Shown in pieces: positions 23,479-49,553 of a DNA stretch of 64,000 bases (position 1 is the stretch's first letter; every line of letters begins with the position of its first letter). The notes under the pieces are model-generated. The model did not search any database. It saw nothing but the letters and a program-made list of their open reading frames with translations, and was not told the origin of the DNA. The DNA is from Gammaproteobacteria bacterium. Lineage in GTDB: Bacteria; Pseudomonadota; Gammaproteobacteria; Porifericomitales; Porifericomitaceae. The DNA lies in the NCBI GenBank assembly GCA_014238615.1, contig JABAAT010000024.1, positions 23,802-87,801 of the forward strand. Reading direction: 5' to 3'. The translations under genes and the position numbers were made by a program.

Positions 23479-24723
23479 TTAAGGAGCAGCCGGGTCCGCC
23501 CGGCCCTGCGCCAGCAAAGTACCTGCCGGCGGCCGCTGCCGGAAATAGCTTTTAACCCCCTTGAACAACGCCGTCACCAGCTGTTCCTGGTAGCGCGGGT
23601 CCCGCAGTTTACGAGCCTCCCCCGGGTTCGAGATAAAACCGACCTCGCACAGAATGGAGGGAATGTTGGGCGAACGCAGCACCATAAAATTCGCCCACTG
23701 CACGCGGAATTTATGAAGCCGTCCCGCCTTGGCGAACTCACCGAGTACTTTTTCGGCCGCCTCGTAACTGGCCTCGCGAGTCGCCGTCAGCGACAGATCC
23801 AGAAGCACCTTGTAGAGCAGTTCATCCCCGGCTTCCCGCTTCACTCCAGCAATCAGGTCGGAAGCGTTTTCCCGCCGCGCCAGAAGATGCGCGGTCTCAC
23901 TGCTCGCCCCCTTGTCGGAAAGTACATACACCGAGCCGCCGCGCACCCGCTTGTCAAGAAAGGCATCCGCATGCAGAGAGATGAACATGTCGGCCTGCCG
24001 GGCGCGGGCCAGTTCCCGGCGTTTTTTCAGAGACAGGTAATAATCGCCGCGACGCACCAGGAAAGCGCGCATGCCGCGCTCGGCCTCAAGCCGGCGCACC
24101 AGGTTCCGGGCGATCTCCAGGGTTAAATCTTTCTCACGGATCCCATCAGGACCGATGGCGCCCGGATCCTCACCCCCATGTCCGGCGTCCACCGCCACCA
24201 ATACGTCACGCGGGCGCACCCGGGTACGTTCGGCGGGCGGCGGCACAGCAGCAGCAGCCTCCGGAACATGCAGATCCACTACCAGGCGGTGCCCGTAGCG
24301 CGCATTCGGCGACAAGGCAAATACCCGGCTACGCGCGTCGCGCTTCAGATCCAACACGATGCGCAGGGTGCGCGGCGAACGCCGGGCGCTGCGCAACCGC
24401 GCCAGGAACAGGTCCTGCGCGGCGACCGTGGGTAGCCTGACACGCAGGGTGGCAACCTGCAGATCCAGCACCAGGCGCTCCGGATCCGGTAAGTGAAAGT
24501 AGCTGAAGCGGACGGGCCCTGACAGATCCAACACCAGGCGCGTATGCTCCGGCGCCGGCCAGATCCGGATGCCCTGCACCTGTGCTCCGGCCGCTCCCTC
24601 GGCAGCCCCGGAAACGGCCCCGGAAACAGGATCAGACCAGCCTTCGGAACAGGCCAGCACGATGAGCGCGGCCAGTGCGCCCAACGCGACCAATCCCCCC
24701 TGCCAATGTCTTCGATCATTCAT
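23479..24723 (-). CDS. amiB: N-acetylmuramoyl-L-alanine amidase (AMIN + Amidase_3)
   Basis: IRIWPAPEHTRLVLDL, VDAGHGGEDPGA, EKDLTL, ISLHADA, PSILCEVGFISN; no LysM tail. Confidence 0.92.
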   Translation of the reverse strand: MNDRRHWQGGLVALGALAALIVLACSEGWSDPVSGAVSGAAEGAAGAQVQGIRIWPAPEHTRLVLDLSGPVRFSYFHLPDPERLVLDLQVATLRVRLPTVAAQDLFLARLRSARRSPRTLRIVLDLKRDARSRVFALSPNARYGHRLVVDLHVPEAAAAVPPPAERTRVRPRDVLVAVDAGHGGEDPGAIGPDGIREKDLTLEIARNLVRRLEAERGMRAFLVRRGDYYLSLKKRRELARARQADMFISLHADAFLDKRVRGGSVYVLSDKGASSETAHLLARRENASDLIAGVKREAGDELLYKVLLDLSLTATREASYEAAEKVLGEFAKAGRLHKFRVQWANFMVLRSPNIPSILCEVGFISNPGEARKLRDPRYQEQLVTALFKGVKSYFRQRPPAGTLLAQGRADPAAP

Positions 24724-42709: not shown

Positions 42710-43796
42710 TCGGCAATTGGTGGGCAGTCCCTGCTTACGCCGGCCGCGCCGTTGTTTCAAGGCCGCCCGAGTGCTGTTCCTGGCGCTGCTGCCGGCGCTC
42801 ATCACCTCCTGTGCGCCGGTCACCCGTCTCCCCACGATCGACCCCGCCCTGGTAGAGCAGGAGCGCAGACTACAGCAAAACCTGGCGATTCGAACGTGGC
42901 AGAAGGACATCAGCCGCCTGCACAGGGTAGCCGCTCCCCTGCTGCGCGTCGCCACACCCGAATGCCCCGGGGAACTCCACGGCCAGCCCGGCTTCCTGAC
43001 CGTCACGGACTCCACCTTCCCTGAAGCCATGCACCGCACGGCGCGGGAAATCTACCGGGGAATCTCTACCCGGCTGGTCATCCTCGACGTGTTGCCGGAG
43101 TCCCCGGCCGCCGCCGCCGGGCTGCGCGAGGGAGACCTGCTCACCGCCCTGAATGGAGCGGCCCTCGGCACGGGGCGGCGCGCCCAACAACGATTGAACA
43201 GCCTCTCCATGAACGAGAACGCGCACCTGGAATTGGAACGCGCCGGGACGGTGCTGCACGTCAGCTATCGACCGCGGACAGCCTGTTCCTACGAAATCCT
43301 CTACCTGAACTCGCAGGACGAGATCAACGCTTACGCCGACGGCCACGCCATCGCGCTGACCCGGGGCATGCTGCGCTTCGTCATGGACGACCGGGACCTG
43401 GCCCTGGTCATCACCCACGAGATCTCCCACAACTCCATGGGTCATATCACGAAAAAACAAGGCAACGTGCTGCTCGGCAGCCTTGCGGATTTGTTGATCT
43501 CCGCGGCCACCGGAGTCCACACCGGCATTTTCAGCAACCTTGCCAGCACGGCTTTCTCCCAGGAGTTTGAAGCAGAAGCCGACTACGTGGGACTCTACCT
43601 GATGGCGCGCGCCGGCTACGACCTGGAGGGAGTCGCGGATTTCTGGCGGCGTATGTCCGTGGAGCACTCGGGAAGCATTGACATCGGTTCCACTCATCCC
43701 ACCTCTCCGGAACGCTTCCTCTCGATCAACGCGACAACCCGGGAGTTACATCTGAAACAGGAGCAGGGCCTGCCCCTGAAGCCGGAACTCAAGTAA
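42702..43796 (+). CDS. PDZ-domain M48 family metalloprotease, probable lipoprotein
   Basis: Lipobox-like LITSC, PDZ (SPAAAAGLREGD), INAYA, HEISH, EFEAEADYVG, THP. Confidence 0.88.
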   Translation: MASRQLVGSPCLRRPRRCFKAARVLFLALLPALITSCAPVTRLPTIDPALVEQERRLQQNLAIRTWQKDISRLHRVAAPLLRVATPECPGELHGQPGFLTVTDSTFPEAMHRTAREIYRGISTRLVILDVLPESPAAAAGLREGDLLTALNGAALGTGRRAQQRLNSLSMNENAHLELERAGTVLHVSYRPRTACSYEILYLNSQDEINAYADGHAIALTRGMLRFVMDDRDLALVITHEISHNSMGHITKKQGNVLLGSLADLLISAATGVHTGIFSNLASTAFSQEFEAEADYVGLYLMARAGYDLEGVADFWRRMSVEHSGSIDIGSTHPTSPERFLSINATTRELHLKQEQGLPLKPELK

Positions 43797-43819
43797 CGGA
43801 AGCCGGAACTCAAGTAACG
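43778..43819 (+). repeat. Exact 21-bp tandem duplication spanning the M48 gene stop codon
   Basis: GAAGCCGGAACTCAAGTAACG at 43778-43798 and 43799-43819. Confidence 0.9.
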
Positions 43820-43931
43820 GAACACGGTGGGCCCCCCACGTCGCTAAAACCCGACAGCCCACCGATAACGCCGAGGTCGGCCCCAGACGACAGGGCGGGC
43901 GCCCGCGTCCGTGGCGGAGCTTACGACCGCC

Positions 43932-44235
43932 GGCCGTTACGTTCCATCATCTACTTAGTAGGGGAATGGGGGTGAAAGCGGCGGAAATGGTATATTATTC
44001 CCTGTTTTTAGGGAATTACCTACTATAATCCTCACAAATCCCCATGATTTTCACATAACCCTGTCCTATTTGCCCTGTCCCGCCTGGTGGGGGAAATGGG
44101 GGTGAAAGCGACGGGAGCAGCCGGAGCATCTGCCCGTGGGTGTCTAACTCGTTAGAGGGTTGAGGAAAGAGCGCAGAGGGTGTCTCCACGCTGCGCCGCA
44201 ACCAACCTGCGGCACCAACACTTAACGTAACGGCT
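43932..44235. mobile_element. MITE-like non-coding element A with terminal inverted repeats
   Basis: GGCCGTTACGTT (43932-43943) ... AACGTAACGGCT (44224-44235); AT-rich interior; no transposase. Confidence 0.4.
43965..44110 (+). repeat. 16-bp direct repeat AATGGGGGTGAAAGCG x2, 130 bp apart
   Basis: Copies at 43965-43980 and 44095-44110; the core GGGGGTGAAAG recurs at 48193-48203. Confidence 0.85.
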
Positions 44236-46483
44236 CCCCGGCTTGCAGGGAACGCAGCAGTTCCTCGGCTTCGCCGAGAAAGGGGGATTGGATCTCTCTC
44301 AGGATGCGCACGGCCCGGCCGACCTGTTGCTCGGCTTCATCCGTTCTGCCGGCTTCCTGCAGCAGCTCGGCGCCTCCCATCAGGGCCGCCGCCCCGTGAC
44401 CGCGGAGTACGGGGGTGGCCGCTTCGGCATAGTGCTCGGAGATTTCCTGGAATGCCTGGATGCCGGCTGCCCGGTCTCCATGCGCCACCAGGGTGGCCCA
44501 CTCCATGCGCAATTCGACCACGGTCTGCTGCAGGAGGGGGTGGCTCTCCTTACCATAGCGTTCCAGCGCGGCCTCCAGGAGCTTGATGCCCTTGCCGGAC
44601 TGCTGCAGCTGCAACAGCATCTGGCTGCGGTGCAGGTGAGCCAGGATCACCAGGTGCCTGACCTCCGGTGCGGGGTCGAGCAGGAATTCCTGGATCATCC
44701 CATCAAGGGAGTCAGCGGCCTCGCGCAGGCGGCCCGCAATGGCGGCGGCGATATTGCGGTACAGCCAGGCCGCGGCCAGGGCCGCCCGGGTGGCATCGCT
44801 AAAGGTGGTCGCCGACGCCTGCAGTTGCAGCAGGGGCTCCAGGACATCAATGGCCTTCTCCCAATCCTGCATGCGGTATAACAGCAACCCTTGATGGGTC
44901 TCGAGCTGGATGCGCGCCTGGGTCTGCGCCGGAAGCTTCCCGGTAAAGCGTTGCAGCGCCTGCTGAATGGCCTGCAGCGCCTCCACGGTCAGGCCGGCCC
45001 GCTCCAACAACCGGCTCTTGCCGATGAACAGGCGCGCACTCGCTTCCTGCAACTTCGCATCTTCGGATTCCGCGTGGCGCGCGGCGGCCTCTTCCAATAC
45101 CTCCAGGGCTTCCGGCAGACGCTGCGCGGCGGCCAGGAGCTCGGCCTGGTATTCCGCGACATCCAGAAGCCGCTCCTGGACCCGTGGGGACGGATCCGCG
45201 CTGAAACGCCGTTGGACGCGCTCAAAGGCCGCCAGCCGCCGTTCCTCCGCCGTGGCTTTTTCTTCTCCTTCTCCCTCCCATTCCTCGTGCTCCCCCCGCA
45301 GCAGCAGGGAGCGCAGGGCATAGGCACGTAAAGCTCCCTCCTCGTCATCCTGAAGGCTTTGCTCCAGGTCTCGCAGGGTCTCACGCGCCGCCCCCGGGCG
45401 CCGCGTTTCCACGAGGGTGGCGGCTCTCTGGATGCGGGCCTCCGCGACAAGTCGGCGCAGCATGACCGGGGTGGCGGCGGAGTAGCGCTCGACCAGCACG
45501 GCATAAAGCTCCAGGGCTTCCTCGTGGCGCTCCAGCCGTCGCAACAACCAGCCCTGCCTGAGCCGCGCCCGTGCCGCCCGGACACGCACCTCCTCCAGCC
45601 TGCTGTCCTCTCCCGCCTCGGCCAGGGTTTGCAGGGTCTGTGCAGCCTGGGCGAGTTCTCCGTTGGACTCCAGCACCTGGCTCTGCTGCAACAGCATCCG
45701 GGTGGCCAAGCTTTGCAACGCCGGGGAAGGGACGCCGGCCGCGTAGCGCTCCAGGAAATACTCCAGCACTTCCAACTGCTCGTCACGGCGGTCCAAACGC
45801 GCCAAGGTCAGCGCCTGCGCCTGCAGCGCGCGTCCGATCAGCAGTTGGCGGCGCTCTTCCAACTCCCACCCGGGAGACGGGGGACGAGCGGCGCGCTGGT
45901 AGGATTCCAGCGCTTCCCGCGGACGCATGAGCAGGGTCAGCATGTCTCCCTGGACCAACCAGGCTTCCGCGAGCAGATCCTCCAGGTCGGGTTCGGCGCC
46001 GTATTCCTCAAGCGTTTCCCGCAGCACGCGCTCGGCTTCTTCCGGACGGCCGAGCCGGGCGTGGGCGAAACCTTCCACCAATCCAGCCACTGCCAGGGCC
46101 GGGCGCGGGGCCGACTCCCGCATGCCGGCCGCGGGCCGGGCAAGCAGGGCCCGGCTCTCCTTCAATGCCTCCTCCGTACGCCCCAGGCGCAGCAACGCCA
46201 GGGCCCGGAAGGCCAGCGCTTTCAGGCGATCCGCCTCGTCCTCGGCCAGCTCCAGGGCGCGCTCCAGGGAGGTCAGGGCCGTTTCCGGTTGCCCCTGGCG
46301 CAGGGTTCCAACGCCGGCGCGCAACCAGGCATTGAAGTCGCCCGGTGCGCTCCCGGTGTCCTGTTCCGCCGACTCGGAGGCCGCCCCGGCCGGCTCAGCC
46401 TGGGCCAGCAAAAGCAGGGTTGAACAGGAGACGCCCGCCGGGCAGTCCACGCCCAGCAGGCTGACGAGCAACAGGTGAAACAT
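44222..46483 (-). CDS. Large TPR-repeat protein, probably exported
   Basis: Hydrophobic N-terminus, then many roughly 45-aa repeats (A.A....G..L..L.R.EEAL..Y..L.ERY). Confidence 0.85.
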   Translation of the reverse strand: MFHLLLVSLLGVDCPAGVSCSTLLLLAQAEPAGAASESAEQDTGSAPGDFNAWLRAGVGTLRQGQPETALTSLERALELAEDEADRLKALAFRALALLRLGRTEEALKESRALLARPAAGMRESAPRPALAVAGLVEGFAHARLGRPEEAERVLRETLEEYGAEPDLEDLLAEAWLVQGDMLTLLMRPREALESYQRAARPPSPGWELEERRQLLIGRALQAQALTLARLDRRDEQLEVLEYFLERYAAGVPSPALQSLATRMLLQQSQVLESNGELAQAAQTLQTLAEAGEDSRLEEVRVRAARARLRQGWLLRRLERHEEALELYAVLVERYSAATPVMLRRLVAEARIQRAATLVETRRPGAARETLRDLEQSLQDDEEGALRAYALRSLLLRGEHEEWEGEGEEKATAEERRLAAFERVQRRFSADPSPRVQERLLDVAEYQAELLAAAQRLPEALEVLEEAAARHAESEDAKLQEASARLFIGKSRLLERAGLTVEALQAIQQALQRFTGKLPAQTQARIQLETHQGLLLYRMQDWEKAIDVLEPLLQLQASATTFSDATRAALAAAWLYRNIAAAIAGRLREAADSLDGMIQEFLLDPAPEVRHLVILAHLHRSQMLLQLQQSGKGIKLLEAALERYGKESHPLLQQTVVELRMEWATLVAHGDRAAGIQAFQEISEHYAEAATPVLRGHGAAALMGGAELLQEAGRTDEAEQQVGRAVRILREIQSPFLGEAEELLRSLQAGEPLR

Positions 46484-46557
46484 GGGTATTCCAGCGTCCG
46501 GAAAAAAGCGGGGCGGTGTGAGCAGGCGCCGGGAAGCACGGCTAAGCTCGGGGGGAT

Positions 46558-46563
46558 ATTATA
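46558..46563 (-). promoter_or_regulatory. Possible -10 box for the TPR gene
   Basis: Perfect TATAAT on the minus strand, 75 bp upstream of the start; no good -35. Confidence 0.3.
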
Positions 46564-46676
46564 GCCGCGCGCCTCCTTGGCACGGACGCCGCACCCCCGC
46601 CTTCCTTATCATGGGCGCTGCATCGTGAAGCTCCGCCCCGCGCCGCCCACGACGCCTTCAGACAACCCATTACTGC

Positions 46677-47678
46677 ATGCCGGATCCAAATCATTCCCCC
46701 CCCGCATTCGCCTCCCCTCCACACTGGCACAGCGGGGCCACGGTGCGCGCCATCATGCTGGAAGTCGCTGCGGCCCTGCTGCCCGGTCTGCTGGTCGCCC
46801 TCTGGCTGCGCGGTCCGGCGCTGCTCACCCACCTGCTGCTGGCCTGCGCCACCGCCTGGGGCATTGAATGGTGCGCCCTGCGCCTGCGCGGGCAACGTCC
46901 TCAAGCACCGATAGGCGACGGCAGCGCGCTGATCACGGCCATGTTGCTCGCCATCTGCCTGCCCTCCTCCGCGCCCTGGTACCTGACGGTCAGCGGCACC
47001 GCCTTCGCGCTGGGCGTGGTCAAGCATTGCTACGGAGGCCTGGGACAAAACATCTTCAACCCGGCCATGGCGGGCTATGTTTTCGTGCTGCTGTGCTTCC
47101 CGGCGGAACTGCTGAACCACCCGCCGCCCGGCGCCGCGCCTGGTTTATGGGCGGCCCTGGGCACCCCGTTCGGCCTGGTCAGCAACGCCGCTCCGGCGGC
47201 TTTCGTGCAGGCCGGACTGCACTCCCAGGGGACGCTCGCGGAATTGCGGGCGCCTGGGCTGGAATGGCCGGAACAGGGACAGGTGTGGCTGGCGGCGGCC
47301 TGGTTCATCGGCGGAGCCTGGTTGCTGGCGCGCCGCATCATCCGTTGGCGCATTCCCCTGGCCATGCTGGGCGCACTCGGCCTGGCCGCCCTGCTCACCG
47401 GCATGCTGGACGACCAACGCTTTGCCTCGGCCTGGTTTCACTGGCTGCACGGCGGCGCCATACTGGCTGCCTTTTTCATTGCCACGGACCCGGTGAGCAG
47501 CGCCTCGACGCCGCGCGGACAACTATTCTACGGCGCCGGCATCGGGCTGCTGACCTGGTACATGCGCAACTGGGGCGACTCCGCCGGCGCAATCGCCTTT
47601 GCAGTGCTGATCATGAATGCCTTTGCACCGCTGCTGGACTCCCTGCCGCACCGCCCGGCACCGGGTGCAGAAGTTTGA
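46677..47678 (+). CDS. rnfD: Rnf/Rsx electron transport complex subunit D (orphan; FMN-acceptor Thr absent)
   Basis: SPPHWH..IM..V..ALLPG, DGSALITAMLLA..LP, KHCYGGLGQNIFNPAM, AFFIATDPVS, AFAVLIMNAFAPLLD. Confidence 0.93.
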   Translation: MPDPNHSPPAFASPPHWHSGATVRAIMLEVAAALLPGLLVALWLRGPALLTHLLLACATAWGIEWCALRLRGQRPQAPIGDGSALITAMLLAICLPSSAPWYLTVSGTAFALGVVKHCYGGLGQNIFNPAMAGYVFVLLCFPAELLNHPPPGAAPGLWAALGTPFGLVSNAAPAAFVQAGLHSQGTLAELRAPGLEWPEQGQVWLAAAWFIGGAWLLARRIIRWRIPLAMLGALGLAALLTGMLDDQRFASAWFHWLHGGAILAAFFIATDPVSSASTPRGQLFYGAGIGLLTWYMRNWGDSAGAIAFAVLIMNAFAPLLDSLPHRPAPGAEV

Positions 47679-47826
47679 AACCCGCCGAGCCGCCGCGCCA
47701 CATCCCCCCTGTTGCTCATGCCGGACGCCCTGGGCGGCGCCACCATCAGCACCCAGGCGATCACCCGCGCCACGCGCACCGCCCTTGAGTTCTACGACCG
47801 GGAACGGGAAGTCCTGCTTTCACCCT
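47675..47826 (+). pseudogene. rnfG: rnfG remnant (internal deletion plus frameshift)
   Basis: TTG overlapping the rnfD stop gives about 12 codons; in the +1 frame, DALGGATISTQAITRATRTALEFYDREREVLL matches the RnfG C-terminus (D..[T/S]GATI..A...A...AL). Confidence 0.75.
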
Positions 47827-47954
47827 TAAGCAATCGCCCAAGTCATCGGCAAGACAACCGGAAAGTTGCTGGACAATCATCACGCTGCTGCTTCGCAAGC
47901 CCCCGGAGCAGAGCTACAAGAATCCCCCGGGAAGCGGGGGGTACGGGAGATACT

Positions 47955-48098
47955 GGCCGTTACGTAAAGTGTGGATGCTTTTTACCACAGGTTGGGCGTC
48001 TTCCTGGGGCAGCGCAGTAGGAAAGGCCGGTTTTGCACAGGCTTCCGGTAGGGCCCTGGCAACTGGACGACTTCGTTGGTTTTCCCAACGTAACGGCT
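47955..48098. mobile_element. MITE-like non-coding element B with terminal inverted repeats
   Basis: GGCCGTTACGT (47955-47965) ... AACGTAACGGCT (48087-48098); left end homologous to the inverted right end of element A. Confidence 0.4.
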
Positions 48099-48203
48099 GG
48101 CGGGAGATGATGCGGGAACCGGACGCCCGGGCCGAAGCGGCCATGGCGGCAACTTTTGTTAACCGGGTTCGGGCTCGCTTTCCGGGGCGGTCGGGGGTGA
48201 AAG

Positions 48204-49553
48204 TTATGGGGCGGGGCCCTCTTCGTTTGCCTGCCAGGCGATATCCCAGGCGGCTTCTTCGGACACTGCGGCAAATTCCTCCGCGACGGTCCTGCCAGAG
48301 ACTGCGGCCAGGCGGTCCCCCACGTAAAGCAGGGGCCATGTGTCTCTTTTCCAAGGCGGAACGCCCCACTCCTGCCAGAGTTTCTTCAGAAGGCGGGTGC
48401 AGTTGCGACCGACCGGGCGGATTTTCTCCCCCCCGCCACGGGTGCGTACTTCCAGGGAGTCTCCGGGGATTTTCCCCGCCGCCAGGCCCATTCCATGACA
48501 CCGCCGCGCCGTCAGAATGCCGCCCGGGAGCCTTAGCGCCTCGGGGAGCCGCCAGTGTCGTGTCTCTACCGTACACTCCAGGTGCTCCCGCACCAGGTAG
48601 AGCCGGTCGCGATAGCGGCGTAGCTCCTCGGCGCCCGATGCGCCGCCCAGTTTCAGGCGGGGGCTGCCGCCGGTGCCATGCAGGAGTTCCCTCAGGATGC
48701 GCCGGGTGGTTTGCGCCGTGGGCGCCGGGCAACCCTGCTCCCGTAACCAGTAATGCAGGAGATTGCGCAGGCGCTCCCCGGAGAGGGAGCGCAGCTTTTC
48801 GAGTGCCAGGCTCGTGGCATGCGGTGAGCGCGCGCTGTCCAGATCCCGCCTTGCCTGCTCGTCCAGCAGGGTCGCGGCCCAGGCCTGCAAGGTGCAGGCG
48901 CGGCGCAGGCTGGTGGAAACGCCAGGCCAGCGGGCACGCAACAAGGGCAGGACATGGTGCCGCAGGTAGTTGCGGTCAGCGCGTAGTTCGGCGTTGCTCT
49001 CATCCTCTATCCATTGGAGCTTGTGGCGCCCGGCGTAGCGCCGCAACTCGGCGCGCTCGTAGCCCAGTAGGGGACGCAACAGGCGGCCGAGGCCCAGGGG
49101 GCGAACAGCGCGCATGGCGGCCAGGCCGCGCGGGCCGGAGCCGCGCAGCAGGCGCAACAACAACGTCTCAACCTGGTCATCGGCGTGCTGGGCGCTGAGC
49201 AGCACATCATCGCTCCGGAGGACGGCGGCCATGGCCCGGTAGCGCTGATCGCGCGCCCAAGCCTCCAGGCTGACGCCGGGGGGCGGCGCGGTCTTCAGCT
49301 CGAAGACGGTCAGGGGAATCCGCATGGCATGACATTGCTCCCGGCAATGCGCGGCCCAGGCCGCGGCGTGGCGGCTCAGGCCGTGATTCACATGCAGGGC
49401 GCAGAGCTCCGGCAGGTGCTTACGCTGGACCGCCAGCGCGTGCAGCAGCACCGTGGAATCCATGCCGCCGCTGTACGCCGCCAAGCAACGGCCGCGTGGC
49501 TCGTGGGTTCTCAGGAAATCAAGCAGCTGCGCCGGGCTGAAGATCGGCGGCAA
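48204..49553 (-). CDS. tilS: tRNA(Ile)-lysidine synthetase
   Basis: AYSGGMDSTVLLHAL, HVNHGL, ARDQRY, QHADDQVETLL, RPLL, WIEDESN, RNYLRH; start approximate (TTG 49553). Confidence 0.96.
   Translation of the reverse strand: MPPIFSPAQLLDFLRTHEPRGRCLAAYSGGMDSTVLLHALAVQRKHLPELCALHVNHGLSRHAAAWAAHCREQCHAMRIPLTVFELKTAPPPGVSLEAWARDQRYRAMAAVLRSDDVLLSAQHADDQVETLLLRLLRGSGPRGLAAMRAVRPLGLGRLLRPLLGYERAELRRYAGRHKLQWIEDESNAELRADRNYLRHHVLPLLRARWPGVSTSLRRACTLQAWAATLLDEQARRDLDSARSPHATSLALEKLRSLSGERLRNLLHYWLREQGCPAPTAQTTRRILRELLHGTGGSPRLKLGGASGAEELRRYRDRLYLVREHLECTVETRHWRLPEALRLPGGILTARRCHGMGLAAGKIPGDSLEVRTRGGGEKIRPVGRNCTRLLKKLWQEWGVPPWKRDTWPLLYVGDRLAAVSGRTVAEEFAAVSEEAAWDIAWQANEEGPAP

Follow-up and report, generated by a model that had tools for sequence, protein, structure and literature searches.

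The 64,000-nucleotide stretch of DNA analysed here (the window; positions 23,802 to 87,801 of contig JABAAT010000024.1, assembly GCA_014238615.1) comes from a gammaproteobacterium of the family Porifericomitaceae and carries on its plus strand an rnfD gene (positions 46677 to 47678) whose product has lost the site at which RnfD proteins carry covalent flavin mononucleotide (FMN). The gene is full length and codes for 333 residues, running from ATG to TGA without a stop or frameshift. Its product matches the Pfam family PF03116 (NQR2_RnfD_RnfE) over profile positions 3 to 289 of 296 (283 bits, cut-off 27.7) and is an RnfD by the NCBIfam profile TIGR01946 (279 bits versus a cut-off of 207), although it does not reach the cut-off of the NCBIfam RsxD equivalog NF002011 (265 versus 415). 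RnfD chains of solved structures are also matched, with E values of 6.8e-54 for 8ahx_D (Azotobacter vinelandii), 1.7e-38 for 9eri_D, and 1.1e-36 for 7zc6_D, as is the NqrB chain 7xk3_B (E 1e-16). The intact 333-residue RnfD frame described in a sequence-only reading of this locus is thus borne out by the PF03116, TIGR01946, and 8ahx_D matches.

The flavin attachment motif is degenerate. Where ApbE flavinylation motifs have the consensus D-x-x-[ST]-G-A-[TS]-x-L, the protein reads G-L-V-S-N-A-A-P-A (47172 to 47198, plus strand), and the acceptor position is Ala172 (codon GCT at 47190 to 47192). When the protein is aligned (MAFFT) with its 120 best database homologues, 113 sequences have Thr at the acceptor position, six have Ser, and two have Ala, the two being the window sequence and P0001, a 99%-identical copy from a second assembly of the same species; adding RnfD from three genomes of the same family (G001 to G003) leaves this picture unchanged. 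Three further motif positions are altered: Gly stands at -6 in place of an invariant Asp (122 of 122 sequences), Asn at -2 in place of Gly, and Ala at +2 in place of Leu, and the segment G-L-V-S-N-A-A does not fit D-x-x-[ST]-G-A-[TS] with an acceptor Thr or Ser. The sequence-only reading had proposed that the FMN-acceptor Thr was lost, and the alignment with RnfD and NqrB agrees, with Ala and no Thr at the FMN site and a loss that exceeds one residue. It had placed the GCT codon correctly, but the coordinates that it gave for GLVSNAAPA (47181 to 47195) cover SNAAP only.

The register of the alignment is supported by known structures. The RnfD structure of Acetobacterium woodii aligns VTTATPLALLKAG to vsnaapaafvqag of the window protein, and the alignment with Vibrio cholerae NqrB numbers the Thr of GYSGAT as 236, the known FMN site, confirming the acceptor position. 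A sequencing error can be discounted, because the window, P0001, and P0242, which are three independent assemblies of the species, all have SNAAPA. Relative to the nearest sister lineage, the 27-nucleotide motif has eight nucleotide changes in five of its nine codons, all of them nonsynonymous and with two changes in each of three codons. Judged from these residues, this RnfD certainly cannot be covalently flavinylated or carry covalent FMN.

The remaining rnf genes and apbE were searched for in the whole genome (a draft of 1.67 Mb in 75 contigs, 99.3% complete) with Pfam, NCBIfam, tblastn with the proteins of relatives, and family-specific hidden Markov models (HMMs) on a six-frame translation. 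An rnfB-rnfC pair lies on the same contig as rnfD (C47:106549-107046 and about 105230-106528, minus strand), some 17.4 to 19.2 kb past the end of the window; both genes exceed their NCBIfam cut-offs and all Cys motifs are kept. The pair is divergent from lptD, and its RnfC has no recorded SLBB (PF10531) match, unlike all listed homologues. A divergent rnfA (42 bits) follows metG (C68:6809-7366). The rnfD gene is therefore an orphan in its immediate surroundings, as the sequence-only reading had it, but not in the genome, where rnfB-rnfC and a divergent rnfA persist. No second FMN_bind protein, intact rnfG, or intact apbE was found in these searches, nor was a complete rnf set with a normal flavin motif, which rules out that a full set at another place explains the locus.

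The apbE gene gives no Pfam match anywhere in the genome, versus its presence in all three same-family genomes. Instead, an N-terminal relic with an in-frame stop is recognised by tblastn and the family HMM (C11:37024-37365; E 1e-8 and 5e-10) between gshB and a tonB-like gene, where G002 has gshB, apbE, two small genes, and tonB. Since apbE survives only as this truncated relic, the genome is without ApbE-type covalent flavinylation. We note that the apbE pseudogene retains 112 N-terminal codons, interrupted by a single in-frame stop, and is joined to the tail end of a Gx-transporter-like gene (C11:36991-37518), and that one deletion took the rest of apbE, a 126-residue gene, and most of a 170-residue membrane gene, all of which are present in G002.

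The second gene of the flavin branch, rnfG, is also a relic, and it lies directly behind rnfD. A 5' stub (47675 to 47710, plus strand) begins with a TTG that overlaps the rnfD stop, continues with LKPAEPPRHIPP, and matches the N-terminus MKPTEWLRHTPAP of an rnfG stub in the sister lineage. A 3' part in another frame follows (47724 to 47879, plus strand; PDALGGATISTQAITRATRTALEFYDREREVLL) and represents the C-terminus of FMN_bind (Pfam positions 56 to 77; E 0.009 genome-wide), corresponding to RnfG residues 164 to 215 of the three same-family genomes (E 2.5e-6, 1.1e-5, and 1e-3); about 150 codons between stub and tail have been deleted. In the same-family genomes rnfG lies directly 3' of rnfD, with purF ahead of the pair in G002 and G003. 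The position of the apbE and rnfG relics at syntenic sites shows that these genes were deleted, rather than left out of the assembly.

For rnfE, neither Pfam nor tblastn finds anything in the genome, and the family HMM gives only a nonsignificant match (E 0.89). This match is a hydrophobic frame (C11:185363-185944) with a G+C content at third codon positions of 0.82, lying between mpl and nth, immediately ahead of nth, where G002 has rnfE; it is possibly a very divergent or decaying rnfE. Of the six subunits of an RnfABCDGE complex, the genome thus has B, C, and D and a divergent A, with G a relic and E a nonsignificant frame, and it has no ApbE available to such a complex. The statement of the sequence-only reading that rnfA, rnfB, and rnfC are not upstream of rnfD and rnfE is not downstream holds locally, but it missed the rnfG relic at 47675 to 47879 and the rnf genes elsewhere.

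Several unusual features of this system are shared across the family. The rnf genes are scattered in all four family genomes, as metG-rnfA, rnfB-rnfC, rnfD-rnfG, and rnfE-nth. RnfA lacks both Cys ligands of the intramembrane [2Fe-2S] cluster throughout the family, with LGLCPF replaced by GAYTI or GLYTL and TNCAV by ANAAL, VNSGL, or VDTLI; the genome studied here has GLYTL and VDTLI. (The canonical RnfA and RnfE used for comparison come from distant canonical operons, at 34 to 44% identity, located by a contig scan with RnfD.) The RnfE proteins of the relatives are barely recognisable (24 to 38 bits), and RnfB (162 to 165 residues) matches its model only from a position between about 26 and 38 onward in all four genomes, which indicates loss of the N-terminal membrane anchor. 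Scattered genes, a Cys-less RnfA, and an anchorless RnfB imply that the starting point was already noncanonical, and it is doubtful that the canonical path from ferredoxin to NAD+ (nicotinamide adenine dinucleotide) operates anywhere in the family. What distinguishes this genome within the family is the loss of the flavin branch.

Apart from other assemblies of the species, the nearest RnfD is that of P0002 (65% identical; ENA ERZ20067936), with the same arrangement of a tetratricopeptide repeat (TPR) gene beside rnfD. The start called for its gene is 26 codons too far downstream, the true one being MPDPSHS, and the protein retains DAVSGATS. Its partner genes are lost as well. Downstream of its rnfD there is only an N-terminal rnfG stub with no C-terminal part, and no apbE remnant is seen at the syntenic site in the same sample, a gshB-tonB gap of 278 bp, which does keep more of the gene once downstream of apbE. 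The lptD/rnfB-rnfC region of the sister is intact, and its rnfD, rnfB, and rnfC are full length. The remnants in the two lineages are complementary, with the apbE N-terminus and the rnfG C-terminus in the species studied here, and a longer rnfG N-terminus and more of the post-apbE gene in the sister, which argues for separate deletion events. These complementary remnants and an apbE relic without clear extra divergence speak against the simple reading that rnfG and apbE were lost only once, in a common ancestor of the two lineages, and we reject it.

The rnfD gene has not evolved in the manner of a pseudogene. It is open from its ATG to the C-terminus of the family, with no frameshift, premature stop, or lost start, and the indels that set it apart from the sister and other relatives all preserve the reading frame, including a polymorphic 3-nucleotide change in a C-run. 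The ratio of nonsynonymous to synonymous substitution rates (dN/dS, by NG86) is 0.23 between the two sisters and 0.20 between G002 and G003. Codon parsimony at columns where the sister matches the outgroup assigns 23 nonsynonymous and 40 synonymous changes (N/S) to the rnfD branch of the window species, 33 and 43 to that of the sister, and 20/38 and 42/72 to relatives with intact rnfD-rnfG and apbE; the corresponding rnfC counts are 35/64, 27/69, 27/79, and 32/97 (window species, sister, and two relatives). Neither the branch N/S of 23/40 nor the dN/dS of 0.23 has a neutral, pseudogene-like pattern. The sequence-only reading had raised the possibility of an early-stage pseudogene of a dismantled Rnf complex: the dismantling is evident in the rnfG relic, the apbE pseudogene, and the absence of a convincing rnfE, but pseudogene-like evolution of rnfD itself, with its N/S of 23/40 and in-frame indels, is not.

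Residues with presumed roles other than flavin attachment are also retained. N124, N127, D271, and D321 align to N200, N203, D346, and D397 of NqrB, which are riboflavin-site and acidic residues, and the position equivalent to the gate residue F342 of NqrB is still Phe.

Upstream of rnfD and divergently transcribed is the TPR-repeat gene (44222 to 46483, minus strand; 753 residues), whose pairing with rnfD recurs in the sister lineage (745 residues, 55% identity). The block of TPR gene, rnfD, and rnfG relic is bracketed by two nested pairs of inverted repeats, an outer pair at 43927-43943 and 48087-48103 and an inner pair at 44212-44234 and 47956-47978. The nested pairs have the 10-mer GCCGTTACGT in common, in four exact copies, and a 24-nucleotide direct repeat (GGGGAATGGGGGTGAAAGCGGCGG) lies in the left flank of the block, with a partial copy at 48193. 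Since the TPR-rnfD block has a different neighborhood in the sister genome, the flanking repeats may be traces of a rearrangement or belong to a small repeat element. At the end of an upstream M48-peptidase-like gene a 21-nucleotide unit (GAAGCCGGAACTCAAGTAACG) is perfectly duplicated in tandem (43778 to 43819). A scan of positions 43500 to 49000 with Rfam gave no matches.

The relics also bear on the order in which the flavin branch was lost. The apbE relic is 28 to 35% identical to its relatives over 112 residues, which are themselves 40% identical to one another, a ratio like that of functional proteins of this genome, which suggests that apbE was under selection until fairly recently. The eight changes in the RnfD motif are about the neutral divergence expected for the whole branch. 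As the motif has diverged at a roughly neutral rate and the apbE relic shows no clear extra decay, the most economical order that we infer from these comparisons begins with the loss of the RnfD flavin site, followed by the deletion of rnfG and apbE. These are small numbers, and the same pattern could also arise from a complex mutation or from positive selection at the motif.

The explanation that we prefer, and hold with about even confidence, is a stepwise loss of the periplasmic flavin relay from an atypical, scattered Rnf system, leaving a flavin-free RnfD that is still selected, probably as the membrane partner of RnfC/RnfB. The RnfD flavin site would have decayed as the initial step, separate deletions in this lineage and in the sister would then have removed rnfG and apbE, and RnfD would have been kept as a membrane subunit carrying the RnfC/RnfB module, possibly together with RnfA and the RnfE-like protein. 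Purifying selection and the retained equivalents of NqrB residues make it most likely that RnfD is kept as a membrane subunit and not as a link in the flavin relay, and the retained rnfB-rnfC pair makes a role as membrane partner more economical than a stand-alone one. The remnant certainly cannot run the canonical ferredoxin:NAD+ path through the FMN of RnfG and the FMN of RnfD.

A number of observations weigh against continued selection, and favor instead a young relic, in which rnfD became useless once rnfG and apbE were deleted and is now drifting neutrally but is too young to be broken; we regard this as quite possible, although we lean against it. The partner genes rnfG and apbE are destroyed and the genome is reduced to 1.67 Mb. 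Among 86 RnfD columns that are at least 90% conserved, 13 are altered, including the invariant Asp of the motif and the conserved P-[DE]-G turn of RnfD/NqrB, where P-D-G has become A-G-A (residues 303 to 305; 47583 to 47591, plus strand, from the alignment). Other sequences average 2.6 such alterations (standard deviation 2.7), and 13 is the joint highest value in the sample, shared with the sister RnfD, so the statement in the sequence-only reading that all of the usual RnfD motifs are present was too generous. Changes specific to this RnfD affect 6 of 84 highly conserved columns and 22 of 217 variable ones, so that conserved columns are not clearly spared. When scaled to GshB, the divergence of RnfD and of RnfC from one sister to the other is about twice that seen when G002 is compared with G003, pointing to weakened constraint. 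The open frame itself is weak evidence because an out-of-phase frame of 306 residues overlaps rnfD, long spurious frames being common here and stop codons few at such a G+C content, and no promoter-like site was recognised between 46300 and 48300, where terminator-like sites occur at chance level. The RnfC-RnfD partnership, moreover, would be carried over by analogy from canonical structures.

Differences between assemblies of the species point in the same direction. A 61-bp tract across the rnfD start (46653 to 46713, plus strand) has five linked differences from the two other assemblies, which are otherwise nearly identical over 21 kb (three single nucleotide polymorphisms just upstream of the ATG, the 3-nucleotide indel in the C-run, and S13A), and a further difference, L244V, also lies in rnfD; apart from these differences the assemblies are 99.96 to 100% identical. 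Two of about four independent differences in some 48 kb are in rnfD or its 5' end and no coding one is synonymous, compared with a single mismatch in about 27 kb around rnfA and rnfB-rnfC. The tract could reflect either recombination over a short stretch or an artefact of the consensus. Branch statistics, in addition, average over a long branch and are blind to the period after the loss of rnfG and apbE, and the young appearance of the apbE relic suggests that a neutral phase may have been too short to register in them. We note, however, that N/S on the branch of this species is the same as in relatives whose system is intact, that a short neutral phase would scatter few changes rather than place eight of them in a 27-nucleotide motif, that the sister has independently lost rnfG and apbE and yet has an open rnfD with in-frame indels only, and that rnfB, rnfC, and rnfA are still intact and identical across assemblies. 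Two other explanations fare less well. Repurposing of the flavin-free RnfD as a stand-alone channel or transporter, the second option raised by the sequence-only reading, in a reversion toward an Amt- or urea-transporter-like function, would draw on the structural and evolutionary relationship of RnfD/NqrB to ammonium and urea transporters, as described in PMC12174285, and is consistent with the separation of rnfD from the other rnf genes, its conserved TPR neighbor in two lineages, and its persisting purifying selection. It is nonetheless improbable, as there is no sign of new constraints, the RnfD-typical riboflavin and acidic equivalents are simply kept, the F342 gate equivalent is still Phe, and the co-retention of rnfB-rnfC in both lineages is left unexplained. 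That the system is an ordinary functional Rnf, with the Ala an assembly error, or with FMN bound noncovalently and rnfG and apbE hidden in gaps, is scarcely credible: the genome is indeed a draft of 75 contigs, but it is 99.3% complete, the motif has lost its Asp, Gly, and Leu as well, and the same motif in three independent assemblies together with apbE and rnfG relics at syntenic places rules out a sequencing error or an assembly gap.

The preferred reading, a selected RnfD without its flavin relay, can be set beside known systems. Compared with canonical RnfD/RsxD proteins (8AHX of A. vinelandii, 9ERI of A. woodii, and 7ZC6 of Clostridium tetanomorphum), the protein belongs to the same family over its full length and retains GQNxFNPA, ATDPVS, the C-terminal PLxD, and the overall length, but it has no acceptor Thr, its ApbE motif is degenerate, and it is encoded apart from other rnf genes in a genome without rnfG and apbE. 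It is homologous to NqrB of the V. cholerae Na+-translocating NADH:quinone oxidoreductase (Na+-NQR; 7XK3) over residues 80 to 322, with the N200, N203, D346, and D397 equivalents kept, but the quinone-site helices of the NqrB N-terminus are missing, as is to be expected in an RnfD, and Thr236 is replaced by Ala. The systems of G001 to G003 share its scattered layout, Cys-less RnfA, and anchorless RnfB, but they keep D-x-x-S-G-A-T in RnfD, an intact rnfG beside rnfD, and an intact apbE, none of which this genome has.

Covalent FMN is reported for V. cholerae RnfD (Backiel et al. 2008, as cited in PMC8238504), and PMC12174285 describes the cofactors of the Rnf/NQR membrane core, four in number, as strictly conserved. 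The ApbE-associated NQR/RNF-like systems, as presented by Meheust et al. (2021; PMC8238504), reuse RnfD-type domains, always with a flavinylated partner. As described there, these systems are like the present case in having an RnfD/NqrB-type membrane domain outside the six-subunit pump, but they are defined by ApbE and a flavinylated FMN-binding domain, both of which this genome has lost.

A natural lineage has thus dispensed with its two covalent flavins and with the flavin-attaching enzyme, and has kept the largest membrane subunit and two cytoplasmic subunits. That two sister lineages shed the RnfG/ApbE relay and keep a selected RnfB/C/D leads us to suggest, tentatively and with less than even confidence, a flavinylation-independent B/C/D module (with or without A and E) in which RnfD would act as an anchor, carry riboflavin, or provide an ion path. 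To our knowledge, no Rnf or NQR has been reported in which RnfD or NqrB plays such a role. The case is known from uncultured organisms, and automatic annotation would label the gene as a normal "RnfABCDGE subunit D." If the gene is functional, it separates the flavoprotein role of RnfD from its membrane or ion-path role and would represent a naturally minimised system; if it is a relic, the locus would record, with good dating, the sequence of steps by which a respiratory complex is taken apart as a genome shrinks.

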